From the IMG/VR virus record IMGVR_UViG_3300032038_000003, positions 128,001 to 192,000 of that record: a DNA stretch of 64,000 nt, one strand, 5' to 3'. The position numbers and the translations under genes were made by a program. This stretch comes from a virus (lineage: Duplodnaviria; Caudoviricetes). Positions 8,882 to 31,392 of the stretch are shown here, piece after piece. Below the pieces are notes generated by a model. The model searched no databases, was not told the origin of the DNA, and was given only the letters and a program-made list of their open reading frames with translations. Every line of letters begins with the position of its first letter. Within the stretch, counting starts at the first letter, position 1.

Positions 8882-11800
8882 TCACTCCGTTAGTTGTGCA
8901 AATTTATTTTCGAGCCAATTATCAGTAATTTTTGAATTATCTCTGGTAATGTTTACTTGTCCATTATTTACTCCAGATTGATTCATCATTCTCTGATAAG
9001 ATTGTGCTTGTAATTTGTTATAGCTTTGTGCAGAAACTTTAAAGTTAAAACCAGAGGCTGCATCATGGTATATTGTCTTATTCTTTAAAGCAGAAGGTAT
9101 AGATGGAGGAGCAATCTTTTTGTGTGATCGCTGTGTTGTTTGTGCATCACTTGCTTGATTGCGATACTGTAAACCATTTTTATTATTGATTTTAACACCC
9201 TTAACATCTTGTGATGTTAATTGTCTTTCTACAGAATCTGGTACTTCGACGCTGTCATTGTCTTGTTTAGTAAATAATGCATGTCCTACAAGTCCAAGTA
9301 CGGCAGCTCCACCAGCAATAGCTCCACCTATTTTAAGACGTTTTCCAGTTTCTGGAGATATATTTTTAAATGATTCACCAATTTCTTTAAGTAAAGTCTT
9401 TTTCTGTATACCTTCAGATGCTTCTCTTGCAGCTTTAGCAGCATTTTCTTTTGCTTGACTAGCAGCTTCTTCTGTAAAAGTTTTGCTTAAGTTATTAAGT
9501 GCATCTGGATTAAATACTGCCTTATAAGATTCTCTTAATGTATCTGCATTAGTAAAATCTAAGCCTATTGTGGTTGCATTCGTATTTCGATTGACAACTG
9601 ATAATATTTCTTTAGTATTTAATGCAGCTTTATATTCAAGAGAATCAGTAGCAAGTGTATTTAATGCATCGTCAATTTCGGTACGTATAGAATGAATCTG
9701 ATTGCCAGAAAGATCCAAAATTCTTGTTCCTGTAAATTGTCCATAGCCTATTCTGGCATTACTAATTCTCGTATCTAATACATCTTTTATTTTAACATTG
9801 TTTAAGCTAAGAATAAAGTCATCATTTCTGGCAAACTTATCCCATCCGAAACGATATATCATTTCTTCTTCAGCGTTTTTAGCTTGAGATAAAGACTTAA
9901 ATATATCTTTTGTGGTGTTATCAACTTCTGTCTGATATAGCTTTTTAGCATTATCAAATGCTGTAACTTCAGATGTATCAGTATTAGTAATACTATCATA
10001 AAAGTCTTTAGCGATTTTATTAACATTTTCTGTTCTTGTAGCTATTAAATTTTCTATTTCGCTAGAAATTTTATTAGACAGTTTTACTTCGTTTAAATCT
10101 CTGACTAAAAATTCATTGTTTTTAATTTTTATATTACTGTCTCTTAAATATTCAGTAATAGTCTCTTCTGCTGTATTACCAGTAATTCTGTTTTTGTTTT
10201 TATTTGGATTAGCAGCTATTTGCTTATTGATGCTACGTATTAGTTCTTTGGCATCTTTAGAACCTTCAATCATGCCGTTTTCAATGCCAAATTGTAAACG
10301 TTCATTAATATCAGTAATTCTACGTTTTAATGCTACGCTATCAGTACCAACAATATTAGCAAGAGTAGTGCCGAGTTTTATATGTGGATTGTAACCTTGA
10401 ATAATAGTAGAAGCATTAATACTTTCGTTAAATCTAGCTTCAAACGAAGCATCGTTAACGTTATCAAATAACCATTGAAGATTATTTTCTATTGTTAAAG
10501 CACCAATGTGTTTTTGTACTTGTGGTAAGTTTCCTGTTGTAATATTCCTTATGTTTAAGTTCCACTCAGGTGTATCTATATCGGTAACATTTAATAAATT
10601 ACGACCTTTATATTTCTTAATATTTTCATTAAGTTGCCTAATGGTCACTGGATTCCATTTAGGATCTATTTGACTAATAGCCTTACCTTCTTGACCAGTT
10701 AAGAAATCAAATTCGCTTAAGTTAACTTTAATCGGTCCATTTTCTTTGTCTTGAACAAACCCTTTAAAGACTAAACCAATTGGACCGTTTTTGCCAGCAT
10801 ATGTTAAAATATCACCATTTCGTAATGCTCTACCAAAAATGTTAAGTGCGTCATCGGTTTTTGACATACCAGCTTTTAGCATTTTTCTAACTGGCATATC
10901 TAATGTGAAATTACCTTTAATGAGTTCGTTCAATCCATCACTGTCTAAGTCTTGAACACCACTTAATAATTTCGGCAAATACGATGTTCTAAAAGAACTA
11001 TGGTATCCAGCATAAGCGTTTTCGTGTTGAGAAAGGTCATATAATCCGCTTAAGTAAATTTTACCAAGCAAATTAAAATCATCGGTATCTTCAGCAATTT
11101 GTAAAGCAGTTTTAAGTGATTTATTCCATTCTGTAAAAGATTTGCCCATAATTTCTTGAGCAAGTTCTGAATTGGTTTGGCTTGAATCTGCAAAGAATAC
11201 TTTACGAGCACCTTCTACTAAGTCTGTCATTGCTTCTTGTATCTTGTCTTGATTAATTTTTTCTGCACCATTGGCATTGGCAAATAATTGAGCTACACCA
11301 ATTCTCCAAGCACTTGAATTATTTAAAGTAGCAGCATCATGTACATGCTTTGTATCGATACCTTTCTGTTCAAGTAAAGTTAATAAACCGCCTGGTTCAC
11401 CATTTTCAAAAGTAAATAATACTCTTCTAATATCTCTTAATGAATCAAGTTCTTTTTTATCAGTTGCAAGACTCATCATATAAGTCATTGCATCTCTTAT
11501 TTCAAGGTTAGGCTTTGAATAATTACCGATATATTCTTTTGCTATTCTTGCTTGAATGGCAGCTTTAATCATATCTGGATTGTTAATCGAACGCCCAACT
11601 CTTTCATCAAATTGTGCAAACTGCTCTCTAATTTGTTTGGAATGTGCTATTAATAACGATTTAATATCTTTATTATCGTCTTTTAATAACAATTCATAAT
11701 CTTCTGGAGATTCATTTTTGATAGCCATCATAAAATTGTTTTCAGCATTATCATAAGCTGCTTTATCAAGGTCTTTTAATAACGAAGCCTTAAAAGATGC

Positions 11801-14800
11801 TTCATCTCCATAGCGGTAGTCTTTAATAGAATCCTTTAATGATTTCGCAAAAATATTTTTATTATGTAAATTCATATTTTCGAACTGTGTTTTCATTAAA
11901 TTATATTCAGATTCTTTATTAGCATTTTTAGCAAGTAATCCACCATTACCTAAGAATTTAATGAATTCCCGATCGCCATCAAAGTCCAGATTTTGGAGTA
12001 TAGAAAACTGAGGACCAAGAAATCTTACTTCATGTCCTTGCATTAAATCATCGAGATATATTCTTACTGGTAACACACCAGTTTCGTTAAAGAACGGATA
12101 ACGACCAGTGAGTCCAAGGATACCTACTTCTCTGGCATATCTATCTCCAACATTTTCAAATAACGAATTTATTTGCATCAAAAATGTTCTTTGATCTTCT
12201 GATGTAATACTTTTATTTAAACCATTAATACCATCGTCGAGATTAGATAATGCAAATAAATCATTAATATAAGAATTAGTTCTTTGATTAAATGTCTTTA
12301 CAGCCGTTTTTTGCTTAGTAAAATAATCTCCATGACTACTCAATATTTTGTCTATAGCATAAGCTGTATTATTTGCCCATTCTTGATGATTAGTACCATC
12401 GAATGTGGTTCGTAACTGTTGTAATGCATCATACAATTCTTGATTAGTAATATTGAATTTAGAAGCTTCGTATTGTATGCCCTTAGATAAATCATATGTG
12501 ACATTTCCAGGTGTATCTTGATAATGAAATCTGCTGATATCATCATAATGAGTTAATCCAGCACTATCACCACTGAAATAATCTTGTACTATTTGCCATC
12601 CTATATGACCAGTATCCATTTCTGTATCTTTAAACATTTGTTTACTGGTCGTAATAGCACTTTCAATAACGTCACCAATTAATACGCCATTATCATCATA
12701 ATGTCTTAAGTATTGAGCATATTTTTCATTACCAGATGTAATATTCAATAAAGAAACAACATCTGTTTTTTCATTTTTAATTTTTGCAACTCTTTCATTA
12801 AGTAAGTTTTTTCTTTTTTGATATGCTGCTGCAAGACTTTGTAATGATTTACTATTGTAACTACCAGTTTGTTCAAGTGATTTAGATAATGAATATTCTA
12901 AATTACGTATATTAGCTATATCATCAGAAGACATAGGTAAAGTAGGCACAATAGCATCTTTTGCTAAAGCACCATATGAATTAGGCATATTCATTTTGTA
13001 TAATGCTTTTGTTAATAAAGAATTCTTATCAGCAGCATTAAGTTCTTTACCGTACGCCTGAAATAAGTCTTGTAATGCACTACTAATTTTATCAGCGTTT
13101 TTAGAACCATTTACATCTAACTCTTTAAGTGTTCTAAAGAATTTTATAGTTGCTTGAGTAGACTTACCAAGGAACATATCTTCATCAGTAGTTCTTAAAT
13201 ACTGATACGGTAATACAATACCAGTCATTTTTCTGTTATTGAACTTGAATTCGCCATATTTTAATAAGTCTAAATAAAAACTATTGCTTTTATATTCTAA
13301 GCGAACACTATTATTGCCAAGTCCAGCTAATGATTGAATATAAGGAGTGTCTTTACCATCTACCCTAAAGATAAAGTTAGCGTATGCTTCTGTCCCAGCT
13401 CCTTTATGTATTCTTGATAATAAGTCTTGAGCGTCTACTTTAATGATATTTTTAGCGTTAATATCGAATTTACCATTGATGTAATCTATAGCATCAAATG
13501 TACCAGATACCATTCTTGATTCAAATTCTGGAGATAAAGTACCTCTTCTTGAACGTACAATATCAGACCATGTACGGTCTATATTTTTTAAACCAACACC
13601 AGCAATTGTTTTATCATATGTTCCATTTTGAATACTGCTTCTAATATGTTCTGCAAGTTTAGCACCATTACCATTAACATAATCACCAGTATCTTGCATT
13701 ACAAGAGCTTGATACAATCTTTGGTCCATTTTAAATGCTTGACCTTCAAATGTATTCATTTGCTGTCTTTGAATAGACTGTAATGCAATATTGTTCTGTT
13801 CAAAATAATCAATTGTTTTAATAGCTTCTTGTGCAATAGCATTATTACTTTTTCTTAACGAATTAACTAAAGCATCAAGTCGATTAATAGATTCATTATC
13901 CATTGGATTATCGAACATTATTGCTCCAGAAATTTCATCATAAGAAAGATGATCTCTTAATTCTTGATTGATTATTTTATAAAATTCGCTCTTTTCAAAG
14001 CCGTTTTTCTGAATATCATCTTTAAATGTTGAGGCAATAATATTCCATCTTGAATCAATAGATGTATCGCTTAAGTGTTTAAAAATATTATTATCAAAGA
14101 TAGCAACCGTCTTGAATTTTGTTTCATTTGGTGCAATTGCATCCATTACTAAATCTGTATATCTATTAAGTAGCCTAACGTCTTCTTTAAAATCGCCAGT
14201 TGTTTTAAGTCCAACAGACTCTAACGTTTGTTGTATTTCTTTTACTCTTTCGTTAGCATCCATAGACATATAATAAGAAAATGTTTCTGCTGTAGCTTTT
14301 TCTTCGCCAGCCATTATCTTAGTTCCTTCTAATTGACGTTCTACTATAGCTTGTGTTTTACCAGTGCTCATTAATTCAACGGCATTCTTTTGTGTAAATT
14401 CAGGAACAGTTTGGCCTTTATAAATAATATCTGTAAATTTACCATTACGGTTCAATTTTCTACCAATGACAGTACCGTTTTCTAATTTGTTGCCAATCAA
14501 TTGATTTAATACATTAGCAGTTTCTTGTTGTTCTGTTTCAGTACCAATTTCAAAGATAGACTTAATTTGAGGAGAACGAATATTTTTTGGATCTCCAAGA
14601 ACAAAGAATTCTTGGTTGGCTATTGAAGGTCTAATATATGCCTTGCCCTCGTATGTATTAATATCGTTTACCATACGGCGGTAAACTTTTATTGCCGCTT
14701 CTTCATCTAAATCACCAAGATTACGTTTAATATACTCTATGGCTTTAGATTCATTAGCACGAATCTCTGCATCACTAATAGACTGCACAGCACCAATAAT

Positions 14801-17800
14801 ATTTCTACGGGAAATATTTTGTGCGGTTACAGCCTCTCCAGCTTCCTTTAAGACTTGTGTATCCATCATTCTTATACTATCAACTTCTTGTTTGGTAGTA
14901 TAAACATCACCAAAGTTAATACCAAGTCTTGTTTGTAAATAATCTGTGTCTGTAAAAAAATGTTCATCTAAGCGATAAGAACGATAGTTTCCTCTCTGCG
15001 TATATGTAGGACGGATAATTCCAGATGATCCAGAGTTATTCATCATACCAGGATTCCAATTATCTATATGCATCATCATTTTATGAGCAAATGATTCAGA
15101 ACCAACGGCATCTAATCCAGCTTCATAAGCAAGTAAATGTAATGCATTACTTAAGTCTTTAGAAATAATATTATTGTCTTCTGATGCTTTAGATAATATC
15201 TGTAAGAAGCTATCACCTTGTAATGCTTTAATGGCATTTATTTCAACATCTTGTAATCCATGTGTATTTGTGCCATTAATAATACCTTCTATAATATTTC
15301 TATCAGAACCTATACCGTCAGTTTGAGAGGTTAAATATCTTTGATAGAAATGCTTAAATGGTTCAGAATCATAGACAGAATTAATAGCAGATTGATTAAA
15401 AATCTGAGTTTTATCTTCTGCATATATTAAATTATATTCATCATTAAAGGCTTTAAAAATACCTCTTAATGCGTTTTCTGCCTGTACAGATTTTCCATTG
15501 GCAGCATTATATCCAGCATCAGAAGTAAGTTTTTTAGTTAAATCTAATAAACCAAGATTGCCTTCTCCTGGATCAAGAGCAATAGTGTGAGCGTACTCTA
15601 TATCTTTAACAGATACAGAATGACGTTTAACAAAGTTGCCATGCAAATCATAAGTACCATTCATTTGCGGAGAAGCTTCATCCGACATTCTGGCAATATT
15701 AGGATTATTAAGTAAAGAGATTGCCCTTCTGTAATCGCCAACAGAGTTTGCTTCAAGAGCAGGCTGCATTCTTTGTCTAATGCTTGTTAAATAGCTACCA
15801 CCCTGGTCTTTAATTCCCCCTTTGATAACACCATCTTTTTCATACATATTCAAGGATAATGTATCATATCTGTAAAAGTTATCACCTTGTTTAACAAGTA
15901 CCGCTCTTGCTCCATGTCCACCGCTCCACTTACCGTCAGCGTCTTTAACGCCGCCAGTTAATTTACGAATAGTATCATTTTCTTCAAGGTTAAATACTTT
16001 AAGATATGGAATTTCAAGATATGAAGCTTTACCTTCTAACGCTTCTTTAATTCGTCTATTAGATGCGTTGCTATCTAAGTTAGATAGTGTCTCGTAAACG
16101 CTACTATAATCCTTGTCTCTTGTGAAAATAGCAAACGCAGAGCCATCTTTTGTTTGTGACTTAAAGAATAAAGACCGTACTGCGTCTTGCCCGTTTTCAA
16201 GGTTTTTATTATATAAAGCTATATTTGATTTTCCTTTATAATTAGTATAATAAATAGTGCTATATTCATTAATGCTTTCATCGTCATAATTCATAGAACG
16301 CAAAACGTCTCTAATTTTAGAAAAATTATCAACGTCTCGTCCATTGACTTTAGTAATATCAAAATTATCTTTTATTAAAACAGATTTGCTTAAGCGATTA
16401 ATATTTTCTGTCGTTTTTGTTTTAACTTCATCAGATAATTTTCCAGTAACAAAAGCCATATTAGAAGTAGCACTTTCAAGCAATATACTACCTTTGTCTT
16501 TATTTTGAATAAATTGAAGTGTCTCAGGATGAATGCCATAAGTCTGGGCGACTTCATCAATAGAGAATCCGCCATCTAATAATTCTTTAACATCTCCAAC
16601 AGTTTGATATCCCAACTTACGCACAGGCACACTATTAGCACTCATATGCGTAACAATAGATTGAGCAATAGAATATGCTTGGCTGCTTGCTCCATGTGTC
16701 TTTTGAATTACAAATCCATGTGTCTTTTGAATTACAGATAAGTCTTCTGTTGTTAACAAACCGTTTTCTTTTAAGGTTTTGGCTGCACCAAGAAGTTTAT
16801 CTGCTACTTCAGATTCAGACATTCCTTTTTGACGATATGTGTTTAATAACTGTCTTGAACCTTTATTAATATCTTCTACGTTAATTCTGGCATAGCTAGA
16901 ACCGTTAGGGACCATGACAGAATTTAAGTCGTCGATTGTATATGTCTTTCCGATAAAAGGTTTTGTGCTGGTTGCGGTTTTTAAATAATCATCACGCATC
17001 GTACTAAATGCAATAGTACGAGAAAGGTTTGTATCTATTTTAGTAATTTCGCTATTTGCAAATGAAAAGAACTCTTTATTTGCATCAAACATGTTAAAAG
17101 TTTGTTGCATAATTTTACGCTCATCATATCTTCGTATGCCAGCTTGATATGCAGTAAGTGATTGAGCGACTTTAGAGTTTCTAAAATGTGATGTAATGCT
17201 ATCTATTTGATTTTTGTCTGCATAGTCAATAATATTAGTAATATTATTGCCAGTACTAATATTAGAAAGCATTCCAGCAACAGTCTTAATTTCTTTACGG
17301 TTAGTATCTAATAAATGCATAGAAGAAACAGCCTCGTCAGATAACGAAGCTAAATCTTGATACATTTTATAATAATTTTGAAAGCTGGCAAAACCACCAG
17401 CTTGTACTGTTTGACCATTACTACGATACGCAGAAACTTGTCCGACATCAAAGAAACCGTCTATGACACGCCTTGCGATATCTCTGTCATGAATGGTATT
17501 TTGTAAATCAATATTGGCTTCTGTTTGATGCACTAAAGAAGTATGGTTTGTAAGCCATGCTTTAAAATCAGCTTCTCCTTCGAATGCTTTAAATAAAGTA
17601 GCTCCTGAATTGTTAACGGATTCAAATCTTGCAAGGTATTTATTTGATGTTTTTGCAATAGTATGATCGTTCCATTCAAGACCGTCATATTGTGTAGAAC
17701 CGACACCACTGAATTTCCAATATTGATTAGATACTGAATATCCAGTAGTAGCTTGACCATCAATTACTACAACGTCTTGAGAACGAATATTACCTTTAGA

Positions 17801-19057
17801 ATTAATCTTTACATAAGAGTTATTTAAAGTAATACTGTTAGGCTTATTAGTAATTTTATTTAATAAATTTATTGCTCTTTGAACAATATTAAAGTGTGAG
17901 GTGTCATCAACAGATCCTCCAACATGATTAAATAATTGTAATGTAGCTAACGAGTCTTCATAAGCATTATGAGCAAGAGACTGCGTATATCCAATACTAC
18001 TTGTCATTGCTTCTGTAAATGCTTCAAGTGAGCCAAGTCTATTATTAGTAACACTTGGGTTTATCTGTTTTACTAATTCACCAACTGTAGCATTATTAGC
18101 ACTCGCCCATGCTCTTAATGCAAACATAGAATCTGCATATTGAAAGTTGTTTGATAAACCTTTAAAACTATGCATACTAGCATAGCGATTCATTGCATTA
18201 ACATCATATTCAAGATTCTGTCCTATAATGGCTCTATTATTTTTTTTATTTTTAGTAAATCCATTAATATAAGATATTAATTCTTCTATCTGTGTATCTC
18301 TATTAGGATTATAGTGAGAAGCCATATTTTCTATACCAGACTGTATATCTTTAATACTGTCTGGATTAGAAATATTAAGCTGATTTACAAAAGTATAAGT
18401 CTTGCCATTCCATTCTCCCTGAAAAGTTGAAAATCCATGAGATCCAAGCGTACTATGACGAGACGCTCTTTCCATAGCAGATTTTTCTGCATCTGTCAGT
18501 TTTTGACCGTTAATCTTTTTCTGCAATACATCTTCAAGCCACTTTTTCTGCTTAGAGTCTATACCAAAAAAGAAAGACCCTGGTGGATTTGTTACTGTAC
18601 GAGCATTACTATAGTTTTTGCTAATAGCCCCCTTATGATGTTCAACGGCAAAGCCTATTTCTGTAATACCAATATTTTCAACAGCTCTTCTTTCGGCTTC
18701 ATCGTTTGATAATAAATTACCAGCAAAGTCACCTATTGTTTCTGTATCGAAGGCAAGGATATTACCACCATTTTTCATGATTTTATCCAGTGCCCACCAT
18801 GCTTTTCTATTATCGTATAGATTATTTTCTGCTCTGTGTAATACAAAATTAAATGGTTCATTATCCCATTTTGCTTTACCTATATTTGTTAAACGTTGTG
18901 CTACAAATACATCACGAGCAGCCCAATAGTCTTCTGCGTCAGTTGTGCCTGTAACTTCCATAAACTTATCCATTGGCGTCCATTGAAGGTCTGGATTGTT
19001 CATAAAAGCAAATGTATTTGGTGCTGTGTAATTACTTCCAAATAATGTAATTGGCAT
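8882..19057 (-). CDS. Giant putative virion RNA polymerase (single-chain, two-barrel type) with N-terminal DEDDh exonuclease and C-terminal membrane segment
   Basis: GRYP (R2319) and NLDFDGD (aa 2356-2362, nt 11972-11992); DEDDh motifs FDTET (D104/E106), GQNLEYD (D285), HNAYED (H363/D368); hydrophobic IGGAIAGGAAVLGLVGHALF near the C-terminus. Confidence 0.75.
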   Translation of the reverse strand: MPITLFGSNYTAPNTFAFMNNPDLQWTPMDKFMEVTGTTDAEDYWAARDVFVAQRLTNIGKAKWDNEPFNFVLHRAENNLYDNRKAWWALDKIMKNGGNILAFDTETIGDFAGNLLSNDEAERRAVENIGITEIGFAVEHHKGAISKNYSNARTVTNPPGSFFFGIDSKQKKWLEDVLQKKINGQKLTDAEKSAMERASRHSTLGSHGFSTFQGEWNGKTYTFVNQLNISNPDSIKDIQSGIENMASHYNPNRDTQIEELISYINGFTKNKKNNRAIIGQNLEYDVNAMNRYASMHSFKGLSNNFQYADSMFALRAWASANNATVGELVKQINPSVTNNRLGSLEAFTEAMTSSIGYTQSLAHNAYEDSLATLQLFNHVGGSVDDTSHFNIVQRAINLLNKITNKPNSITLNNSYVKINSKGNIRSQDVVVIDGQATTGYSVSNQYWKFSGVGSTQYDGLEWNDHTIAKTSNKYLARFESVNNSGATLFKAFEGEADFKAWLTNHTSLVHQTEANIDLQNTIHDRDIARRVIDGFFDVGQVSAYRSNGQTVQAGGFASFQNYYKMYQDLASLSDEAVSSMHLLDTNRKEIKTVAGMLSNISTGNNITNIIDYADKNQIDSITSHFRNSKVAQSLTAYQAGIRRYDERKIMQQTFNMFDANKEFFSFANSEITKIDTNLSRTIAFSTMRDDYLKTATSTKPFIGKTYTIDDLNSVMVPNGSSYARINVEDINKGSRQLLNTYRQKGMSESEVADKLLGAAKTLKENGLLTTEDLSVIQKTHGFVIQKTHGASSQAYSIAQSIVTHMSANSVPVRKLGYQTVGDVKELLDGGFSIDEVAQTYGIHPETLQFIQNKDKGSILLESATSNMAFVTGKLSDEVKTKTTENINRLSKSVLIKDNFDITKVNGRDVDNFSKIRDVLRSMNYDDESINEYSTIYYTNYKGKSNIALYNKNLENGQDAVRSLFFKSQTKDGSAFAIFTRDKDYSSVYETLSNLDSNASNRRIKEALEGKASYLEIPYLKVFNLEENDTIRKLTGGVKDADGKWSGGHGARAVLVKQGDNFYRYDTLSLNMYEKDGVIKGGIKDQGGSYLTSIRQRMQPALEANSVGDYRRAISLLNNPNIARMSDEASPQMNGTYDLHGNFVKRHSVSVKDIEYAHTIALDPGEGNLGLLDLTKKLTSDAGYNAANGKSVQAENALRGIFKAFNDEYNLIYAEDKTQIFNQSAINSVYDSEPFKHFYQRYLTSQTDGIGSDRNIIEGIINGTNTHGLQDVEINAIKALQGDSFLQILSKASEDNNIISKDLSNALHLLAYEAGLDAVGSESFAHKMMMHIDNWNPGMMNNSGSSGIIRPTYTQRGNYRSYRLDEHFFTDTDYLQTRLGINFGDVYTTKQEVDSIRMMDTQVLKEAGEAVTAQNISRRNIIGAVQSISDAEIRANESKAIEYIKRNLGDLDEEAAIKVYRRMVNDINTYEGKAYIRPSIANQEFFVLGDPKNIRSPQIKSIFEIGTETEQQETANVLNQLIGNKLENGTVIGRKLNRNGKFTDIIYKGQTVPEFTQKNAVELMSTGKTQAIVERQLEGTKIMAGEEKATAETFSYYMSMDANERVKEIQQTLESVGLKTTGDFKEDVRLLNRYTDLVMDAIAPNETKFKTVAIFDNNIFKHLSDTSIDSRWNIIASTFKDDIQKNGFEKSEFYKIINQELRDHLSYDEISGAIMFDNPMDNESINRLDALVNSLRKSNNAIAQEAIKTIDYFEQNNIALQSIQRQQMNTFEGQAFKMDQRLYQALVMQDTGDYVNGNGAKLAEHIRSSIQNGTYDKTIAGVGLKNIDRTWSDIVRSRRGTLSPEFESRMVSGTFDAIDYINGKFDINAKNIIKVDAQDLLSRIHKGAGTEAYANFIFRVDGKDTPYIQSLAGLGNNSVRLEYKSNSFYLDLLKYGEFKFNNRKMTGIVLPYQYLRTTDEDMFLGKSTQATIKFFRTLKELDVNGSKNADKISSALQDLFQAYGKELNAADKNSLLTKALYKMNMPNSYGALAKDAIVPTLPMSSDDIANIRNLEYSLSKSLEQTGSYNSKSLQSLAAAYQKRKNLLNERVAKIKNEKTDVVSLLNITSGNEKYAQYLRHYDDNGVLIGDVIESAITTSKQMFKDTEMDTGHIGWQIVQDYFSGDSAGLTHYDDISRFHYQDTPGNVTYDLSKGIQYEASKFNITNQELYDALQQLRTTFDGTNHQEWANNTAYAIDKILSSHGDYFTKQKTAVKTFNQRTNSYINDLFALSNLDDGINGLNKSITSEDQRTFLMQINSLFENVGDRYAREVGILGLTGRYPFFNETGVLPVRIYLDDLMQGHEVRFLGPQFSILQNLDFDGDREFIKFLGNGGLLAKNANKESEYNLMKTQFENMNLHNKNIFAKSLKDSIKDYRYGDEASFKASLLKDLDKAAYDNAENNFMMAIKNESPEDYELLLKDDNKDIKSLLIAHSKQIREQFAQFDERVGRSINNPDMIKAAIQARIAKEYIGNYSKPNLEIRDAMTYMMSLATDKKELDSLRDIRRVLFTFENGEPGGLLTLLEQKGIDTKHVHDAATLNNSSAWRIGVAQLFANANGAEKINQDKIQEAMTDLVEGARKVFFADSSQTNSELAQEIMGKSFTEWNKSLKTALQIAEDTDDFNLLGKIYLSGLYDLSQHENAYAGYHSSFRTSYLPKLLSGVQDLDSDGLNELIKGNFTLDMPVRKMLKAGMSKTDDALNIFGRALRNGDILTYAGKNGPIGLVFKGFVQDKENGPIKVNLSEFDFLTGQEGKAISQIDPKWNPVTIRQLNENIKKYKGRNLLNVTDIDTPEWNLNIRNITTGNLPQVQKHIGALTIENNLQWLFDNVNDASFEARFNESINASTIIQGYNPHIKLGTTLANIVGTDSVALKRRITDINERLQFGIENGMIEGSKDAKELIRSINKQIAANPNKNKNRITGNTAEETITEYLRDSNIKIKNNEFLVRDLNEVKLSNKISSEIENLIATRTENVNKIAKDFYDSITNTDTSEVTAFDNAKKLYQTEVDNTTKDIFKSLSQAKNAEEEMIYRFGWDKFARNDDFILSLNNVKIKDVLDTRISNARIGYGQFTGTRILDLSGNQIHSIRTEIDDALNTLATDSLEYKAALNTKEILSVVNRNTNATTIGLDFTNADTLRESYKAVFNPDALNNLSKTFTEEAASQAKENAAKAAREASEGIQKKTLLKEIGESFKNISPETGKRLKIGGAIAGGAAVLGLVGHALFTKQDNDSVEVPDSVERQLTSQDVKGVKINNKNGLQYRNQASDAQTTQRSHKKIAPPSIPSALKNKTIYHDAASGFNFKVSAQSYNKLQAQSYQRMMNQSGVNNGQVNITRDNSKITDNWLENKFAQLTE

Positions 19058-19068: not shown

Positions 19069-22000
19069 CTAACTATAATTAAGATTCTTAATCTGGTAAT
19101 CTACTTCTGATCTGGTATCCTGTCTAATATTAAAGTCAGATGAATCACCATTTATACCATTCATATAAGAGACTTGGACACTATTTAAACCGTTACTGCC
19201 TAATATTCTGGTTAATTGTGCCTGTACTCTTCTTGGGTCATTACGAGTTCTTATTTTTGGAATAGGGATATTAACTTGGTCAGCTTTCCGTTTGTTATCA
19301 GTCCAGATATCAAATTCACCAGGATCTAATCCGTTAGCATTGACCATCTTAATCTTAACATCTTCAAGATCTGTATCTTCTTGCCATCCTACCCAATTTT
19401 CATCTGGTAATGCATGATTTTTAAAGTATTCTGTAAGCTCTGGTTTTTCGTCAACATGCATACCCCAAGAAGCTTGTAATGCCCGTCGTAAATAACTTGG
19501 AGCTATTCTAAGTATCTTTTGCTTTTCTTCTTCTGGTGCTTCTACTAACTTAGAATAATATTGTCTTTCTTTCTTAGGTAAAGCAGCCATTATATTTCTT
19601 ACATCGTCACCAGGATCATATCCGTACATAGTACGTTCTGCGGCCTGTTTATAAGAAATAGCTTTAATAGCATTTAATGGCAATTTTTCTACTTTTCTGT
19701 CATTAGATATCTCAGCAAGTTCTTTATTAATAGCTCTTACAACTTCTTTTTTGGATTGCCCTTTTTCTTCATATTTAGGCTCTCCATACTTAAAATTATA
19801 ATTACCACGATGCTTGAAATCAAGTTTAACAAGGCGTTTGTAGTTGTTTAATTCTTGCTGTCTAGCCTTATTATCTTCGCCTTTTTGCTCTTGTTTTTCG
19901 ATATATGCATCAACATCAAAGTGATCTTTCTTTTTAGCGAGTTCCTTATATTGATTGTAAAGTTTAGTGTTTTTAACATATTTAAGGGTATCAATATAAG
20001 TATTCATTTCTTCTTGCTGTCTACGTCTCTTAGGTCTCCATTCACGATCCTTATTAGAACCAAGATGATGTATAGTAGTTCCTATAGCTGGCACAGCAGC
20101 ACCAAATATGGTAGCGATCATTTTACCGTATGGGCCTTTACCCATCATGCTACCAAGAAATGCACCGCCAACAATAGCACCAATTGGATGTTGAGAAGAC
20201 AAGTCTTCTACAGTAGGAACTACGAAATCTCTAATAGGGTGATTCCAAGATTTGAAATCTTTATTATACACTTCACGTTTACGGTATTGTTCATAAGGAC
20301 TTCTAATCTGGAAGAACTTATCACCTATAAACGGTAATTTAGATGCACTATGAGTTAAGGTCTCCATCATAGAACCAAAAGCTATATCTCCTTTGGAATA
20401 TCTTGCATGGATTCCAGCTGGAGAATCATCGGTTTCTTTCTCTTTAGCAAGACCTTTATCAAGCATACGTCTATTAAGATTAGTACCTTTTGCATTAACG
20501 ATAGCCCTAATTGACTGTGTAGAGTCTTTATTATATTTGTTACGTTCATCAGCATCATATTGAATGGTAATACGTTGACCAGGCTTGAGATACTTTCTCA
20601 ATTCGTCATTTGCAGCTTGGTTCATTGTTTTACCAGTTCTAACTGTACGCTCTCTACCAGTAGCCTTATTAATTTCTTTCTTTTCTTTAACGGTAGGCTT
20701 ATATAACGTACTATTGGACTCTGAAACATTAATGCCAGCAAATTTAATAGCGTGTTCTTTACCATATTCGTTAACAATAATGGTATTATTATCTATTATC
20801 TCTTTAACGGTAACCTTTTCTGATTTTAAGTTTGCTGTCTTAAACTTATAATCATATACTCTTAAAGGTTCTTTTTGCTCCTGCATACGCTCACGAGCAG
20901 CTTTGACTTCTTTCTTTTCTGCTTCTGATAAATGAGCATGAGAAACTTGAGCAGATATATCTTTAAACTCTTGAGAGTACGGAGCAGTATCTGCGAGTAT
21001 TTTGTATTTCTCTACAAGAGAATATAAATCTCCTCTTGAGATTTCGCCTGTCTGTAAACCAGTATATATATCTTTCTTGGCATCATTAAGATTTTGGATA
21101 CTTGAGCGTAAATCTTTTTTATTAAATCTTACTCTTGCTTTATATATATCATCTGGGTTTTCTTTATCATAATAATAAACATAACCTCTGCCCTTGGTAT
21201 TATTTAAAGCATATAAATCATAATTCATTTCGTAATAATCTTGATTACGAATATTATGACCTTGCTGGAGTCTTTTGAATTCGTCAGAACTTACGCCTCG
21301 AATATTAATCAAAGACTCTCCAGTGCGTGAATGATAATCTTTTATTCTTGCATCTACAAGACCAGATATATCATGCTGAGCGTCATTAAATTTAATTCTT
21401 GAACCCAATAAAACATCTGCATCTCTAAAATGGTCTAATATTTTAGAGACAAACTCTTCTACTTGATTAAGATTTTGGATATCATATTGGTCGTTAGTAA
21501 TTTCTTTAGGACGCTTATCACGTTTTAATGATTTGATATCTTCTTCTTGCTGATACGTTAAGTTAGTATCTTGATGCAAGAAATGTCTTACATGTGCAGA
21601 ACGTGAGTTGCCAATCATGCTGGCACTAATATTAAAGCTGAAATCTATATTGTTTAATCGCTCATATCCTTCACCTGGGAGCCTCTCTTCGCCATTCATG
21701 ATTTTAGAATAAGGATCGCCGTGTAAATAATCAGTAAAGTAATTAGATCCTGGCATCCAAGTAGGCATAGTATTCCTGATAGGATTTAAAAACTTTGTAT
21801 CGTTATCTCTTTTATGAATGAAACGACGAGAGATTTCCGAAAGTTCTCCGCCTAAACCACCAAGGTTCTGATTCCAAAATGATCTGTTCGCAGAATAAGC
21901 ATAACTTGATGTCTCTACTTTAGTAGAGCCAATGTTCTGCTCGCCAGTAAACATAGATTGAATCAAGAAACCTTTTAAACCATAGATATTAGCAATATCG

Positions 22001-25000
22001 TTAAACTCTTCTCCGATATTCCATAAAATATCATTATCGGTTTTTTGTGATTCTTCTTCTTGATATCCTTTATCATATTCGTTTATACTAATACGCTGAT
22101 TAGTACCATAAATCTTATTTAAAGAATAATGTTTAATCTCTTCGTTGACTTTATATAAGTTAAGATTTTCTGGCACGTCAACAACAGATATGCTACCAGA
22201 TGGAGTAGTATAAACATCTAATGCAGTATCGTAACGATTATAATCTCTATAAGGTAATGTAGATGATTGTAATGGGCTTGCATATTCTTTTGCTTTAGTA
22301 AATAATCTTTGCTGAAAATTCTCTGCATCTGAATATGGTAATGTTCTTACAACATCTAACTTACCAGGAGTATTAGGATTATAAGCAACGGTATATGTTT
22401 TTAAGGCATTATCGTACAACGGTGTTTGTTTAAACTGAGTAAATGTATTATTAGTTTGTGGTGTACGAGCCTCTGTTAATGTTTTAGCTGTAAATAAGTC
22501 TAACAATCTTTGATTAGCAGCTTTATGATATTGTTCTTGAGTCTTTGTATTAATTTGATTGAATGTGTCTGTATCTATAAAAGCTTTTTCTAATGTCTTT
22601 AAAATATCGTTTATAAAGCCAGTTTTTGCTTTTGCAAAACTAGACTGACCAGTCATTAATAACTGGCTAGGTTTTTCATCTTCTGGATTAACAGTTTTTA
22701 AAGTACCGTCTGGATTCCAATATTCTTTGTGCATCTTATGACGGTATACCTGTCCTACAGTACCAGATACTAATGGACCAATCAAAGGAATATTTTCGCC
22801 TTTGGCAGCAGTTTCTGCATATGGTCTATCGTTATAATGCTTTTTATCCCAATGATTCGGGTCAGTAATAAAATGTCTGATAGGAGCTAATGGACTTACT
22901 AAATTAGGATACCAAGTATTTTGATAATATTCTTTACGAGAACCATACATGGTATCGCTATATTTAACATCAGCCTCTATACGACGATATATATTAGGTC
23001 TCCAGTGGTCAATTTTTGCACCAGTAAAAGGAGTATTAGAAACAGACCAGTAACGATTTTTACGTACTGGATCGTATCCTTTTTCGATATATTCCTTACG
23101 TTCTTCTGCTGTTTGACCAAGACCTAATTGATATATTCCAGGTAACTCATTAAACTGATCAGATCCTGGTGTCATTTCTTGAAGATACTTAAATATCTTT
23201 GTAAATCCTAATGTGTCACCAAGTTTGTGTGCTCCTATATCAATAGGTTTCACAACGTCTCGCATTAATGTTTTACCAAGAGTATCAGTTTTACCTTGTT
23301 CACGTTCCTCTTTACTAGTAAATAATGGCTCAGAGAAATAGTTAATCATACCAGGAATCTGAGTTAACATGAATACTGGCAATGCTCTTTTTACTAATAA
23401 ATTTCCAACTAATGCTCCAGTAGAACGTTTAGATTTAAGACTCAATCCCAATCCAATACTAGCAAGACCAGAATCGAGTACATTAAATACATCGTACAAT
23501 GTAGAAGATTTTTCATTAAAGTATTTCCCCATTGTACCATCTGCTTTGAAACCAGAAAAACGCTGTCCAAAAAATCCTTTAAGATCATCTACGAATTTTT
23601 CTTGATTTTTATCTTTTGTATCTTGTATTAAATCGCTAAAGTTAATACCTTGTTTTGTTAATATTATGTTTTTCCCATGTACTTTTGTACCATTTTTAGT
23701 GATAAAATCATCAAAGCCTTTACCAAATGCCATGTTATATGATTTATCTCTAATATTAGATGCAGCTTCTTCGTAAGTAGCATATTGAAAATTGTCTGTT
23801 TTAAATAAATTAGAATGAGAAACTTTATCTAATAAATCATCAAAAGTATTGTCTGGGTTAAATGAATCACCTATATTTCCAGCACCACCATCACTAAGGC
23901 TTACAAATTCTTGATGTCCAATATCTAATATATCACCAATTCTTTTTCTAATTTTTTGGCTAAATGTTAAGTTAGCAAAAGGAATGTCTTCTCTAACATC
24001 TTTATTAAGATGATAGTTAGCCATTTGACGCATTGTTTCTACGTGATGAGGCATTTTAAATTTTTTATCTACATCTGAAATATCCCAAGCATCAAAACCA
24101 GAACCTATAAACTCTTTAGTACCTCCAGTACCAAGAGCATAAAGGTCTCCATCTGCAAATAATAAATGAAATGTTTCGTCAAAATTATTAAATCTTTTCT
24201 GAAGAGCGGTATTTATATCATCACCTATTCTACCGCCTTTACCAGAAATATATGGTGAATAATTACCAACACCATTGATTAATGCAAATGAAGTATCTCT
24301 ACGGTTAAACATATTGTCTAACGGAGTGACTTTAATAGCACTATCAATAGGGTTAAATCCTAATACTGGTAAACCAAAATCTTTTCTTATAGAGTTAGTA
24401 AAGAATCTTAAGGCATCTTCGCCCATCATATAGTTAATAATATTGTCGCCTTTTGCATTGATGTTTAATGCTGGATCTATAATAAATTTCTTCCAGACAT
24501 CATCAAAGTTACCTAATGCACCTATTTTATCGCCTTGCTGATAAAGATAATTCGTATTAGTAAGAAAGCCTGTCATAGTTTGTAATACAGTTCTTTCGTC
24601 TTTACCAACGGTTTCGTTAAGATTTATTTTAAATTCATCAAAGAGTCTCTTTTCGTTAAAGCCTTCTTTAAAAATTAATTTCTTTTCTTTTTTGTCAATA
24701 CCTTCGAAGATATCTCCAAAGGTGAGCGTCTTATATCCAGTGTGTTTAATCTGATACTGAGCTGCTTCATCAGTTAATGAGATACGACGAATAAAACGCT
24801 CCATTAAATCGGCACTAACACTATTTCCAGACTGATTTAATCCAGCTCTGTCAATACTACGCATAATATCATTCATTTCGTATGTGTGTTTAATAAAGCT
24901 AGATTCTTTAATACTGGCATTACGATGTTTAATTCTTTTTCGTCCATCTTCCATTAAAGCATTTGTACGTTCTTTTATAGTACGTTTAATAACATCTTTT

Positions 25001-25533
25001 GGTTGACCATCCATTTCTTCCATAATGGATTTACGTAACGCTTTAACTTCTGCTGTAGTATAACCTCTTGTGTCTTTTTCAATCATTTGATTGAGAATAT
25101 CTAAGTCTGCAACGGTATCATTAATAATACGTCTGGTATTAGTTGTGTATAATTGACCTCTTGCAAATGATTCTTTTAAATCTTGCCATAAATCATATCC
25201 AAGAGAAGAAGCTTTTTTAGCATTAAATAAGCTATGATCTGGACGCAGAAATTCTCCAGTATGACCATTAGCCCAGTTTTTCATAGCTTTTGAACGATGA
25301 TATCCTTGATTAGAAGACATTTCTGCAAAGGACGCACCTACTTCTTTCATTTTGCTTGCAATAGGGCGTAAAGCACCACTCTTGTATAAAGCTACACCGC
25401 CAGCAATTACAAGGCCAGCAGTAATAGCTTTTCCAAGAGTATCATTTTGATTTGCATCCTGTTTATCATCTATTGTTTGATTAGTAAGCAAATTACTATT
25501 GTTTTGCCTTAGTTTTTTGTTCTCTAAAGCCAT
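19069..25533 (-). CDS. Tape-measure-position/ejection protein with degenerate thermonuclease (SNase) and PD-(D/E)xK-like domains
   Basis: Follows the tail chaperone pair; several Gly/Ala-rich hydrophobic segments; SNase-like VKEIIDNNTIIV...IKFAGINVSE...NLNRRMLDKGLA (~20440-20820); Cas4-like ISGLVDARI...INIRG...MNYDLYAL...GYVYYYDKENP (~21120-21420). Confidence 0.6.
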   Translation of the reverse strand: MALENKKLRQNNSNLLTNQTIDDKQDANQNDTLGKAITAGLVIAGGVALYKSGALRPIASKMKEVGASFAEMSSNQGYHRSKAMKNWANGHTGEFLRPDHSLFNAKKASSLGYDLWQDLKESFARGQLYTTNTRRIINDTVADLDILNQMIEKDTRGYTTAEVKALRKSIMEEMDGQPKDVIKRTIKERTNALMEDGRKRIKHRNASIKESSFIKHTYEMNDIMRSIDRAGLNQSGNSVSADLMERFIRRISLTDEAAQYQIKHTGYKTLTFGDIFEGIDKKEKKLIFKEGFNEKRLFDEFKINLNETVGKDERTVLQTMTGFLTNTNYLYQQGDKIGALGNFDDVWKKFIIDPALNINAKGDNIINYMMGEDALRFFTNSIRKDFGLPVLGFNPIDSAIKVTPLDNMFNRRDTSFALINGVGNYSPYISGKGGRIGDDINTALQKRFNNFDETFHLLFADGDLYALGTGGTKEFIGSGFDAWDISDVDKKFKMPHHVETMRQMANYHLNKDVREDIPFANLTFSQKIRKRIGDILDIGHQEFVSLSDGGAGNIGDSFNPDNTFDDLLDKVSHSNLFKTDNFQYATYEEAASNIRDKSYNMAFGKGFDDFITKNGTKVHGKNIILTKQGINFSDLIQDTKDKNQEKFVDDLKGFFGQRFSGFKADGTMGKYFNEKSSTLYDVFNVLDSGLASIGLGLSLKSKRSTGALVGNLLVKRALPVFMLTQIPGMINYFSEPLFTSKEEREQGKTDTLGKTLMRDVVKPIDIGAHKLGDTLGFTKIFKYLQEMTPGSDQFNELPGIYQLGLGQTAEERKEYIEKGYDPVRKNRYWSVSNTPFTGAKIDHWRPNIYRRIEADVKYSDTMYGSRKEYYQNTWYPNLVSPLAPIRHFITDPNHWDKKHYNDRPYAETAAKGENIPLIGPLVSGTVGQVYRHKMHKEYWNPDGTLKTVNPEDEKPSQLLMTGQSSFAKAKTGFINDILKTLEKAFIDTDTFNQINTKTQEQYHKAANQRLLDLFTAKTLTEARTPQTNNTFTQFKQTPLYDNALKTYTVAYNPNTPGKLDVVRTLPYSDAENFQQRLFTKAKEYASPLQSSTLPYRDYNRYDTALDVYTTPSGSISVVDVPENLNLYKVNEEIKHYSLNKIYGTNQRISINEYDKGYQEEESQKTDNDILWNIGEEFNDIANIYGLKGFLIQSMFTGEQNIGSTKVETSSYAYSANRSFWNQNLGGLGGELSEISRRFIHKRDNDTKFLNPIRNTMPTWMPGSNYFTDYLHGDPYSKIMNGEERLPGEGYERLNNIDFSFNISASMIGNSRSAHVRHFLHQDTNLTYQQEEDIKSLKRDKRPKEITNDQYDIQNLNQVEEFVSKILDHFRDADVLLGSRIKFNDAQHDISGLVDARIKDYHSRTGESLINIRGVSSDEFKRLQQGHNIRNQDYYEMNYDLYALNNTKGRGYVYYYDKENPDDIYKARVRFNKKDLRSSIQNLNDAKKDIYTGLQTGEISRGDLYSLVEKYKILADTAPYSQEFKDISAQVSHAHLSEAEKKEVKAARERMQEQKEPLRVYDYKFKTANLKSEKVTVKEIIDNNTIIVNEYGKEHAIKFAGINVSESNSTLYKPTVKEKKEINKATGRERTVRTGKTMNQAANDELRKYLKPGQRITIQYDADERNKYNKDSTQSIRAIVNAKGTNLNRRMLDKGLAKEKETDDSPAGIHARYSKGDIAFGSMMETLTHSASKLPFIGDKFFQIRSPYEQYRKREVYNKDFKSWNHPIRDFVVPTVEDLSSQHPIGAIVGGAFLGSMMGKGPYGKMIATIFGAAVPAIGTTIHHLGSNKDREWRPKRRRQQEEMNTYIDTLKYVKNTKLYNQYKELAKKKDHFDVDAYIEKQEQKGEDNKARQQELNNYKRLVKLDFKHRGNYNFKYGEPKYEEKGQSKKEVVRAINKELAEISNDRKVEKLPLNAIKAISYKQAAERTMYGYDPGDDVRNIMAALPKKERQYYSKLVEAPEEEKQKILRIAPSYLRRALQASWGMHVDEKPELTEYFKNHALPDENWVGWQEDTDLEDVKIKMVNANGLDPGEFDIWTDNKRKADQVNIPIPKIRTRNDPRRVQAQLTRILGSNGLNSVQVSYMNGINGDSSDFNIRQDTRSEVDYQIKNLNYS

Positions 25534-30462: not shown

Positions 30463-31392
30463 TTAGATAGTAACCATATTGGTATCGCTTGTAACGTCGT
30501 TAACAAGTTTACCAATGATAGTACCGTTCTGATCACGAGTGTAAACACCACGGATCAATGGACTTAATCTACGAGCGATCCATGTTAACTGTCTGCTCAT
30601 GATTACTGTATCAACAGAAGCACCAGAGCTTTCGTTAAGGATATCAACATCGTAAATCTTCTGGAATGCAGTGTGTCCGTACTCAGAACCGAATGTAAGA
30701 GTAATATCGAATGGAGGTAATGTATCTGCATAGATTACATTCTGTCCACGGATTGGAGCGAAGCCAGCTGGAACATTGATTGTATCAGCTGCATTGTCAT
30801 CCCATGCTCCTAATCTCTGATCAACAAAGCCATTGGAATCAATGGTAGGTTTGTTGTTCGAACCCTTTGCTGTCTGAGCAGAAATTGGGTTGCTGTAAGA
30901 ACCAGCACGACCAGTACCCTGTGAAGTAGCTGTATTCGAGAATGAGAATCCGTATCCAGCTCTGTCGTTTGTTGAAACTCCGTTTAAAGCATAGATAGGA
31001 TTGTTAGCATCTGTCTGACCGTTTGCTGTATAGCTAACAGTCTGGTTCCACTTAATCATGTCCATAGCGTTTGTGAAATCTTCTGAACGAGATAACACAT
31101 TGTTTGCAGCAGCAGTAAACATAGCTGAAGGAGCGATGTCTTGCCATACTGTCTGTAAAGCCTCTACTAAAGAATCATGATCGAAAACTGCGAATACCAT
31201 AGATCCAGCGATACCACGTTTTCCACGAGAGAAAGAACGAGCATCAGCAGAACCACAAGTAAACACAGGAGCTTTATCTCTTTGTACAGCCCATGAAATT
31301 TGCTGTAACTCACCAATGGCTTTATTAGCGAACGTAGCAACAAGGTCTGCACCAGAAAAACTAGTTAATGTGCTAATTGTTGGACTTGCCAT
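30463..31392 (-). CDS. Major tail tube protein
   Basis: Directly downstream of the sheath gene; SFSGADLVATF...GELQQISW...RSFSRGKRGIAGSMVF...DTLPPFDITLTF; strong RBS AAGGAGG; high-expression codon style. Confidence 0.75.
   Translation of the reverse strand: MASPTISTLTSFSGADLVATFANKAIGELQQISWAVQRDKAPVFTCGSADARSFSRGKRGIAGSMVFAVFDHDSLVEALQTVWQDIAPSAMFTAAANNVLSRSEDFTNAMDMIKWNQTVSYTANGQTDANNPIYALNGVSTNDRAGYGFSFSNTATSQGTGRAGSYSNPISAQTAKGSNNKPTIDSNGFVDQRLGAWDDNAADTINVPAGFAPIRGQNVIYADTLPPFDITLTFGSEYGHTAFQKIYDVDILNESSGASVDTVIMSRQLTWIARRLSPLIRGVYTRDQNGTIIGKLVNDVTSDTNMVTI

Follow-up and report, generated by a model that had tools for sequence, protein, structure and literature searches.

A DEDDh exonuclease-like domain at the head of a giant tail-module protein with a two-barrel RNA polymerase-like core in an uncultured contractile-tailed phage

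Virion RNA polymerases (RNAPs) are known from phage N4, the crAss-like phages, the phiKZ-like phages and phage P23-45, and in the last of these the polymerase is fused to the tape measure. To our knowledge, no exonuclease has been reported on any of these virion RNAPs, and our literature search turned up no published case in which an exonuclease is joined to a virion RNAP or to a tape measure. The fusion of virion RNAP and tape measure established in the Thermus phage P23-45, in the protein gp96, provides a precedent for delivery of such multidomain proteins (PMC10770324).

The window analysed here is a stretch of 64,000 nucleotides (positions 128,001 to 192,000 of the IMG/VR record IMGVR_UViG_3300032038_000003) from an uncultured phage of ~210 kb with a contractile tail, tail sheath genes being present. 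It encodes a giant protein, P0001, for which we recovered 34 full-length homologs of 3306-3648 aa:

8882..19057, minus strand: gene for the 3391-aa giant tail-module protein P0001, a single ORF, translated
9272..9328, minus strand: putative membrane helix, Gly/Ala-rich and hydrophobic, aa ~3244-3262, read from the sequence
8885..9160, minus strand: conserved C-terminal tail, aa ~3300-3391, with invariant residues and the motif NWL..F

The P0001 gene lies between genes for a 2154-aa protein on one side and a 2038-aa hub/lysin protein on the other; tail tube and chaperone genes precede it, the hub gene follows, and this order is kept in distant homolog contigs. The locus is the position that gp146, the 'tape measure' of Bacillus phage 0305phi8-36, occupies in a contractile-tail (myovirus) module. 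The gene order matches that of 0305phi8-36 (sheath, tube, chaperones, gp145, gp146, gp147), with synteny across gp143-gp147, and is syntenic with Moorella phage MTATph1 as well, gp146 and MTATph1 CDS0027 both being preceded, like P0001, by sheath, tube and chaperone genes and followed by the hub/lysin gene. In MTATph1 a transposase gene comes after the CDS0027 gene. A crAss-like identity had been our first guess for the phage and was dropped on the strength of the tail sheath genes and the synteny with 0305phi8-36. The GenBank record of 0305phi8-36 lists gp146 as a 'hypothetical tape measure protein' found in virions by mass spectrometry, and gp146 and P0001 have a C-terminal tail in common: aa 3257-3387 of P0001, which include this tail, are the only stretch that resembles gp146 (BLASTP E=0.006). 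By analogy with such proteins, P0001 is probably packaged in the virion and ejected.

A preliminary description, made from the DNA alone, had proposed an apparently intact DnaQ-like exonuclease at the N-terminus of a putative RNAP at this locus. We located the following elements:

17852..18808, minus strand: DEDDh (DnaQ-like) 3'-5' exonuclease domain, aa ~84-402, from an AlphaFold (AF2) model and fold searches
18731..18760, minus strand: ExoI, ILAFDTETIG, aa 100-109 (D104, E106), on strand beta1, from motif and model
18650..18670, minus strand: GITEIGF, aa 130-136, a beta2 element typical of epsilon/PolC-type DnaQ domains
18248..18634, minus strand: insert of ~125 aa specific to this family, aa ~142-270, separating beta2/beta3 from helix A, from the secondary structure of the model
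18200..18229, minus strand: ExoII, IIGQNLEYDV, aa 277-286 (D285), at a helix start
17954..17974, minus strand: ExoIII, AHNAYED, aa 362-368 (H363, D368), the H-x4-D pattern by which the DEDDh subtype is defined

All five catalytic residues are present exactly where that description had placed them (D104/E106, D285 and H363/D368), and they are invariant in the 34 homologs, the four acidic residues among them; its extent for the domain, 17940-18770, was right in location but slightly too narrow for the folded domain at 17852-18808. In ExoI, T107 and G109 are invariant along with the two catalytic residues, and DTE (aa 104-106) falls inside a predicted strand at 98-108. ExoII consists in the model of a strand (275-279) followed by a helix (282-295), with G279, N281, L282 and D285 invariant, and in ExoIII the invariant residues are H363, A365 and D368, so that His, not Tyr, would serve as the general base. 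The GITEIGF element keeps T132 and E133 in every homolog, YADSM at aa 307-311 is a further DnaQ-type element, and the insert has invariant residues of its own (S161, G165, R197, S199, S202 and G241).

Invariance is rare in this domain: among the 34 homologs, whose lowest pairwise identity there is 29%, only 20 of 319 positions (~6%) are invariant, and the chance that all five catalytic residues would be among them is ~6e-7 (hypergeometric). In the five most distant homologs the exonuclease domain is 34-45% identical, compared with 30-37% for the whole protein. This pattern bears on whether the domain might be a non-catalytic remnant, its fold retained only for structure or for gripping DNA ends. 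Such a remnant would fit a domain so divergent that it escapes Pfam and PDB sequence profiles, but the five metal- or water-activating residues and their motif neighbours are invariant where only 6% of positions are, and DEDD domains, once inactivated, usually lose their catalytic residues. We therefore regard a remnant as improbable. From motifs, conservation and fold together, the domain is very probably catalytically active.

The predicted structure points the same way. The AF2 model of the domain has a pLDDT of 84, and in an exhaustive fold search of 48,161 PDB representatives the best 50 matches were all DEDD exonucleases (Z 8.0-11.7), in line with the RNase H-like DEDD fold that the preliminary description had expected. 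VIA-align matched the model to the Cas2-DnaQ domain, Pol III epsilon, TREX1/2, ExoI and the DinG exonuclease at Z 10.6-12.6, covering whole DnaQ domains. With DnaQ/epsilon-type DEDDh enzymes (E. coli Pol III epsilon, PolC, Cas2-DEDDh, DinG, TREX1/2, ExoI) the P0001 domain has in common the RNase H-like DEDD fold, aligned at Z 10.5-12.6 and an rmsd of 3.0-4.0 A over 164-196 residues, together with the ExoI D-x-E, the ExoII D, the ExoIII H-x4-D and the 'ITEIG' and 'xDS/T' elements. It differs from them in its low sequence identity (9-19%), in the ~125-aa insert with its own invariant residues, which is reflected in alignments that cover only those 164-196 residues within a 300-residue span, and in that no standalone form was found, only the head of a ~3400-aa virion-module protein. 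On the model, aa ~84-402 of P0001 form a genuine DEDDh (DnaQ/epsilon-like) exonuclease fold, a deep branch with an insert of ~125 aa.

Sequence profiles capture this branch poorly. The preliminary description had suggested a search against RNase_T/DnaQ families: Pfam gave no family for P0001 aa 1-480, with RNase_T (PF00929) absent even at E<=1, and a six-frame scan of the genome found no PF00929 match at E<=10, but PHROG 192 ('DNA polymerase exonuclease subunit') matched the domain with a weak signal (E=1.6e-4). Profile signals in the homologs were likewise weak (DEDDh_C at E=2.5e-5 in two, RNase_T at E=0.034 in two). The domain thus belongs to the DEDD superfamily by fold and motifs and lies outside the Pfam RNase_T family because the PF00929 cut-off is not reached. 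Searches of PDB sequences by phmmer and profiles returned chance-level rows only, and tblastn found neither the exonuclease region nor the DFDGD region in 50,697 phage records. Among 1.84 billion representatives, phmmer recovered only the giant-protein family and its fragments, and when profiles were used to look for proteins of 158-643 aa (standalone forms) or 644-2000 aa (other architectures), nothing but fragments on short contigs came up. Judged from these sequence searches, the branch appears only as the N-terminal module of the giant-protein family.

The closest structural neighbours of the domain are mostly DNA exonucleases, but this ranking does not separate a DNA from an RNA substrate because the RNA-specific DEDD enzymes 3'hExo, REXO2, RNase T and ISG20 score only 1-2 Z units lower. 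The oligonucleotide degraders Orn/REXO2 and the CBASS-linked Cap18 are also among the fold matches. Since the domain is fused to a late, structural-module protein, we rejected as a main reading that it supplies the epsilon subunit which the DnaE-type polymerase of the phage is missing.

The second module of interest occupies the centre of P0001, ~1000 residues away from the exonuclease:

11198..14797, minus strand: two-barrel RNAP-like core, aa 1421-2620 (AF2 model, pLDDT 80, pTM 0.78)
11972..11986, minus strand: DFDGD metal-binding motif, aa 2358-2362, within NLDFDGD (aa 2356-2362)

NLDFDGD is invariant in the 34 homologs (D2358, D2360, G2361 and D2362 included), as is R2319-x-P upstream of it. 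Single-chain two-barrel RNAPs have a second barrel that contributes two basic residues; here K1580 and E1586-K1587, also upstream, are invariant. Each of the best 50 Foldseek matches of the core is either an RNAP beta' chain or QDE-1, though the E-values are weak (6e-3 to 3e-2), and VIA-align gave Z 10.2 for maize RDR2 and Z 9.3-9.8 for beta' chains over 276-432 residues; the RDR2 alignment spans core-model residues 1-1175, and NLDFDGD falls in the region aligned to beta' and RDR2, as expected of a DxDxD motif in a beta'-like double-psi beta-barrel. No sequence-profile match was found for the core. The genome has a second, RdRP/YonO-like gene (PF05183, E=5e-20), and a BLASTP comparison of the core with the product of this gene found only the DFDGD pentapeptide in common. 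With moderate confidence, the centre of P0001 can be said to resemble single-chain two-barrel RNA polymerases in its predicted fold, which, with the invariant NLDFDGD, agrees with the proposed placing of the exonuclease N-terminal to an RNAP.

The comparison with P23-45 gp96 (PMC10770324) can now be drawn more closely. Both are giant proteins of a tape-measure locus with an N-terminally placed two-barrel RNAP that carries DFDGD and with membrane segments, putative in P0001, toward the C-terminus, and both phages have a second, non-virion two-barrel RNAP elsewhere, here the RdRP/YonO-like gene. However, P23-45 is a siphovirus whose gp96 has a metallopeptidase and no reported exonuclease, whereas the P0001 phage has a contractile tail, and in P0001 a DEDDh domain precedes the RNAP core, which lies at aa ~1420-2620. 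The likeness is one of architecture, without established sequence similarity.

Exonuclease and RNAP core occur in one chain in 34 of 34 homologs and are never split, as might be expected if the exonuclease were an accessory of the polymerase, cutting back nascent RNA from its 3' end so that backtracked complexes are rescued or misincorporated nucleotides removed. Single-chain two-barrel RNAPs lack such a cleavage activity, and the domain would provide it in cis. The preliminary description had held that two-barrel RNAPs normally proofread at their own active site; this is true of multisubunit RNAPs but not of the single-chain relative YonO, which is error-prone and in which no RNA hydrolysis was detected (PMC5467207). 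The RNA-acting DEDDh enzymes among the close fold matches would also suit an accessory, and a stalled polymerase would be lethal if transcription helps to pull in the 210-kb genome. On the other hand, the ~1000 residues between the modules do not favour it, unrelated cargo domains are often strung together in tape-measure-type proteins, the fidelity of mRNA is seldom limiting, and the virion RNAPs of P23-45, N4 and the crAss-like phages, as said, have no reported exonuclease.

The cultured relatives provide a further test of this reading. MTATph1 CDS0027, the positional equivalent of P0001, has an RNase_T domain (PF00929, 24.2 bits, E=5.4e-5) that is barely above the 24-bit cut-off, and it aligns to the ExoI region, the following helices and the start of the insert of the P0001 family (hhalign E=5e-4). 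In 0305phi8-36 gp146 the exonuclease profile gave no significant match by hhalign or hmmsearch, and the link is a single ExoI-like motif at aa ~1215. These exonuclease-like segments lie in mid-protein (aa ~850-1070 in MTATph1, ~1215 in gp146), while that of P0001 is N-terminal. No DxDxD motif is present in CDS0027 or in 0305phi8-36 gp145/gp146, and the RNAP-core profile has no match in CDS0027 or gp146. An RNase_T-type domain in a counterpart without DxDxD argues that the exonuclease is not simply an RNAP accessory, so that transcript trimming, which the preliminary description had listed first, is still conceivable but weakened, and we consider an accessory role rather unlikely.

Only slightly less likely is that exonuclease and polymerase form a proofreading pair, in which the 3' end of the nascent strand is trimmed by a cis-linked DEDDh nuclease. 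Coronavirus nsp14 ExoN is a DEDDh exonuclease serving an RNA polymerase that is unable to cleave its own product, and such a pair, if true, would be its counterpart in a DNA virus. For the accessory role, too, the likeness is a functional analogy only, as nsp14 serves a polymerase of palm RdRp fold on an RNA genome where fidelity matters, and the two are separate subunits. In its radical form, which we regard as extremely improbable, the two-barrel core would make DNA like archaeal PolD, with DnaQ-type proofreading.

The presence of the module in a relative that lacks the RNAP, MTATph1, is also what a nuclease for counter-defence or host takeover would predict. Here the ejected domain would play a part comparable to that of an enzymatic module in the injected 'polyvalent' proteins, destroying nucleic acids of the host or of its defences that offer a free 3' end, for example oligonucleotides that serve as guides or signals, retron-type ssDNA, or the ends of host DNA. 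The injection of large multidomain proteins that bear counter-defence enzymes is documented (PMC5512222, PMC7824862), and the DEDDh enzymes include the oligonucleotide degraders Orn/REXO2 and the CBASS-linked Cap18, all of which are fold matches of the domain. The polyvalent-protein survey, however, lists no DnaQ-type exonucleases ('DnaQ' does not occur in it, and 'exonuclease' occurs once, in the reference list), nothing links the domain to a known defence system within the window, and a few copies per virion would be a poor stoichiometry for bulk targets. We judge this role unlikely, and below both transcript trimming and proofreading.

We tentatively favour a role of the exonuclease in processing the 3' ends of the entering phage DNA, a possibility that we rank first, above transcript rescue or proofreading and, after these, an action on host or defence nucleic acids. 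If P0001 behaves as tape-measure and pilot proteins do, a few copies of it per virion would exit through the tail with the C-terminal membrane end leading, and the N-terminal exonuclease would enter last, beside the leading end of the DNA. There, working in cis, it would trim or resect the 3' ends of the genome as this comes in; complementary terminal repeats could, for example, be laid bare in this way and then serve in annealing, in circularisation or in replication primed by recombination. It would then be neither an accessory of the RNAP nor a degrader of bulk host nucleic acid, and a few ejected molecules would suit two DNA ends better than bulk degradation.

The gene map sets limits on what end processing could achieve. 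QDE-1 and the unrelated N4 virion RNAP prefer single-stranded or hairpin templates, and the preliminary description had offered resection of the genome ends to expose a single-stranded template, to which hairpin promoters for the virion RNAP may be added. The genes of the phage diverge from one point and run inward on both arms (plus strand 86-80431, minus strand 80644-207504), and the ends of the IMG/VR record share ~105 bp, as those of a circular assembly would. In 0305phi8-36 the inward gene plan is identical and the genome ends lie at the divergence point (PMC2147016). The template strand of inward-reading genes would thus have its 3' end at the terminus, where a 3'-5' exonuclease would remove it instead of exposing it; template exposure fits this polarity poorly and is very improbable. 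The same polarity is a counterpoint to end processing as we favour it, since a 3'-5' attack at the leading end would hit the template strand of inward early genes and could be harmful.

The likeness to the MTATph1 and 0305phi8-36 proteins suggests that exonuclease modules recur in the tape-measure-locus proteins of little-studied 0305phi8-36-like Bacillota phages, a kind of ejected cargo that is missing from current surveys of injected multidomain proteins. Sitting at the DNA-proximal end of a giant protein that is ejected, a conserved and apparently active nuclease of the DnaQ type would introduce a new enzymatic step into the first seconds of infection, and this step could be the processing of incoming genome ends, the rescue of a cleavage-deficient polymerase or the destruction of defence nucleic acids.

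A single ORF (window 8882-19057, minus strand) encodes the 3391-aa giant protein and holds the exonuclease domain, on a virus record of 210,314 bp with a completeness of 100% (CheckV), of which bases 128001-192000 form the window. The ExoI, ExoII and ExoIII motifs lie in this protein exactly where the preliminary description had placed them, and are listed here with the other elements to which we refer. Antisense to the exonuclease-coding region is a 90-codon ORF (window 18437-18709, plus strand) that shows no sign of being a gene.

Features of the 3391-aa protein (encoded on the minus strand)
aa 100-109: ExoI motif, ILAFDTETIG
aa 130-136: GITEIGF element
aa 277-286: ExoII motif, IIGQNLEYDV
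aa 362-368: ExoIII motif, AHNAYED
aa 2358-2362: DFDGD motif
near aa 3244: Gly/Ala-rich hydrophobic segment

Word-seeded and exhaustive searches found relatives of the protein only among metagenomic giant proteins (3306-3648 aa), together with a few short-contig fragments. When 34 full-length homologs were aligned, pairwise identity in the exonuclease region went down to 29%, and 20 of its 319 positions were invariant. These include D104, E106, D285, H363 and D368, five positions named beforehand whose joint invariance has a chance probability of ~6e-7, as well as T107, G109, T132, E133, G279, N281, L282, D309 and A365, which sit at typical DnaQ motif positions. The domain is slightly better conserved than the protein overall and is therefore under purifying selection. 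Invariance of the acidic residues in the 34 homologs upholds the original claim of an intact DnaQ-like exonuclease; that the domain is an inactive remnant strikes us as very improbable, among the least likely of the readings considered.

An AlphaFold2 model of aa 1-480 (22 homologs as input) had a mean pLDDT of 84, with averages above 85 in most 10-residue blocks of aa 81-400, and in secondary structure it conforms to the DEDD topology. ExoI is placed on strand 98-108, ExoII where helix 282-295 begins after strand 275-279, and ExoIII immediately before and inside helix 365-376; an insert of ~125 residues (aa ~142-270) breaks into the fold. Foldseek ranked TREX1/2, RNase T, Orn, the DnaQ domain of Cas2-DEDDh and the Pol epsilon exonuclease at the top, with probabilities mostly of 0.8-0.99 though weak E-values, and VIA-align gave Z of 10.6-12.6 at rmsd 3.0-4.2 A, with small DnaQ domains fully covered (172/172 for 8h18, 173/175 for Pol III epsilon 2ido). 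Further, in an exhaustive alignment to 48,161 PDB representatives, independent of Foldseek, all 50 of the best 50 matches were DEDD exonucleases (Z 8.0-11.7). Model and fold searches thus agree on the DEDD fold that the assignment called for. The match to RNase_T/DnaQ profiles was borne out only in part: PHROG 192 ('DNA polymerase exonuclease subunit') matched the domain at E=1.6e-4, and DEDDh_C (2.5e-5), DNA_pol_A_exo1 (0.011) and RNase_T (0.034) matched weakly in two homologs each, but the domain of the 3391-aa protein itself had no match in Pfam or against PDB sequences. Because a faint sequence-level signal accompanies a DEDD fold match, we conclude that the domain forms a deep branch of the DEDDh superfamily that is private to this protein family.

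The same chain carries, at aa 1421-2620, what is probably a two-barrel RNAP, a moderately supported reading. The best 50 Foldseek matches to the model of this segment (pLDDT 80, pTM 0.78) were exclusively RNAP beta' chains and QDE-1, VIA-align superposed 276-432 residues on maize RDR2 (Z 10.2) and on beta' chains (Z 9.3-9.8), and NLDFDGD, R2319-x-P and the upstream K1580...E-K1587 are invariant. A separate RdRP/YonO-like RNAP of 904 aa is encoded in another part of the genome (3147-5861, plus strand; Pfam RdRP PF05183, E=5e-20); it has an N-terminal Rho_N domain (E=1.9e-7) and is related to 0305phi8-36 ORF99 and Enterocloster phage proteins, and the 359-aa ORF directly upstream of its gene (genome 1977-3056) has no Pfam match. 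DEDDh domains are known, as are virion or tape-measure-fused RNAPs, each separately. In the literature we found neither a published report of their fusion nor a DnaQ-type nuclease in tape-measure-locus proteins, and DnaQ-type exonucleases go unmentioned in a survey of the polyvalent proteins that phages inject. In having both a virion-module and a non-virion two-barrel RNAP, the virus resembles Thermus phage P23-45, whose tape measure gp96 bears the virion RNAP (PMC10770324); a nuclease is mentioned neither in that paper nor in a recent N4 vRNAP structure paper.

The closest cultured relatives of the virus are Bacillus phage 0305phi8-36 and Moorella phage MTATph1; a crAss-like phage was ruled out, the window coding for two tail sheath paralogues, tube paralogues and a 2038-aa hub/lysin. 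The products of window 28703-30325 and 30463-31392 (minus strand) are labelled 'major head protein' by PHROGs, but their homologs gp140/gp141 appear in the 0305phi8-36 record as a tail tube and its paralogue; the 540-aa protein of the two in the window also matches endolysin and peptidoglycan-binding PHROGs in a C-terminal segment. Gene order agrees with 0305phi8-36 gp137-gp147, the 3391-aa protein occupying the slot of gp146, whose annotation reads 'hypothetical tape measure protein' and lists it as identified in virions by mass spectrometry. Similarity to gp146 is confined to the C-terminal ~130 residues (E=0.006), and a 2007 comparative paper reported conservation in the gp146 gene limited to the last ~60 residues (PMC2147016). 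Distant homolog contigs preserve the order of the three giant genes. The giant protein encoded upstream, P0002 (2154 aa, window 19069-25533, minus strand), is hydrophobic in an N-terminal segment and gave a weak glycine-zipper 2TM match (aa 1785-1814); by eye its aa ~1500-1530 (VKEIIDNNTI...FAGINVSE) resemble staphylococcal-nuclease OB-fold motifs, without Pfam support. The genome also codes for a DnaE-type Pol III alpha with PHP domain as its replicative polymerase (genome 50817-54284), UvrD and SNF2 helicases, an Mre11-Rad50 fusion and an anaerobic ribonucleotide reductase, and a six-frame RNase_T scan of the whole genome turned up no canonical epsilon-type exonuclease. From NrdD, 33% G+C and the relatives, we infer an anaerobic Bacillota host.

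At the tape-measure locus of MTATph1, the 1309-aa 'hypothetical protein' CDS0027 (30512-34441 of OR602862.1) contains, at aa ~850-1070, an RNase_T-type DEDDh domain that is missing from its annotation (PF00929, 24.2 bits against a gathering cut-off of 24, E=5.4e-5). It contains LDLETT, GVTEIA and AHEALTD in that order and aligns with the giant-protein family over ExoI and the insert's first helices (hhalign E=5e-4); its gene may be interrupted, since a transposase gene directly adjoins downstream. In 0305phi8-36, gp146 (32736-40349) has at aa 1223 the canonical-looking ExoI sequence YLDIETTGLS, with AGQNVADAD and LDTL after it; this segment gave no significant profile comparison and H-x4-D was not seen, and it may be a degenerate or very divergent exonuclease module. 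The DxDxD motif is absent from CDS0027, its neighbouring fragments, and gp145 and gp146. Because CDS0027 has an RNase_T-type domain at the same position without DxDxD, the exonuclease module, as judged from sequence, is not tied to the RNAP within this lineage, which argues against a role in rescuing or proofreading for the RNAP. It had been held that two-barrel RNAPs proofread at their own active site; this fails for the single-chain branch, where YonO lacks RNA hydrolysis activity (PMC5467207), so a helper nuclease is conceivable, and we rank this doubtful role second.

Finally, the genes of both genome arms are oriented inward, away from a point of divergence near coordinate 0/208 kb; 0305phi8-36 shares this plan and has its physical ends at that point (PMC2147016). 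For inward genes it is the template strand whose 3' end lies at the terminus. A 3'-5' resection would thus destroy template instead of exposing it, and the earlier proposal that the exonuclease resects genome ends to expose a single-stranded template is scarcely credible, again among the least likely readings. The record ends (1-208 and 210149-210314) overlap by ~105-108 bp at 99-100% identity, with two matches offset by ~42 bp, consistent with an assembly that is circular (a permuted or collapsed terminal repeat) and contains a short tandem element. The analysis shows the domain's identity, conservation, fusion and context, and each role ranked here is a proposal. Attack on host nucleic acids or counter-defence ranks third and seems unlikely. 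Rather, we tentatively favour action in cis on the entering genome, because the N-terminus would be DNA-adjacent and only a few copies would be present per virion. If it behaves as tape-measure proteins do, the protein would leave with its C-terminal membrane end in front and its N-terminal exonuclease behind, next to the DNA, where the exonuclease may act on the 3' ends of the entering genome, either trimming them or resecting them so that complementary terminal repeats are exposed.
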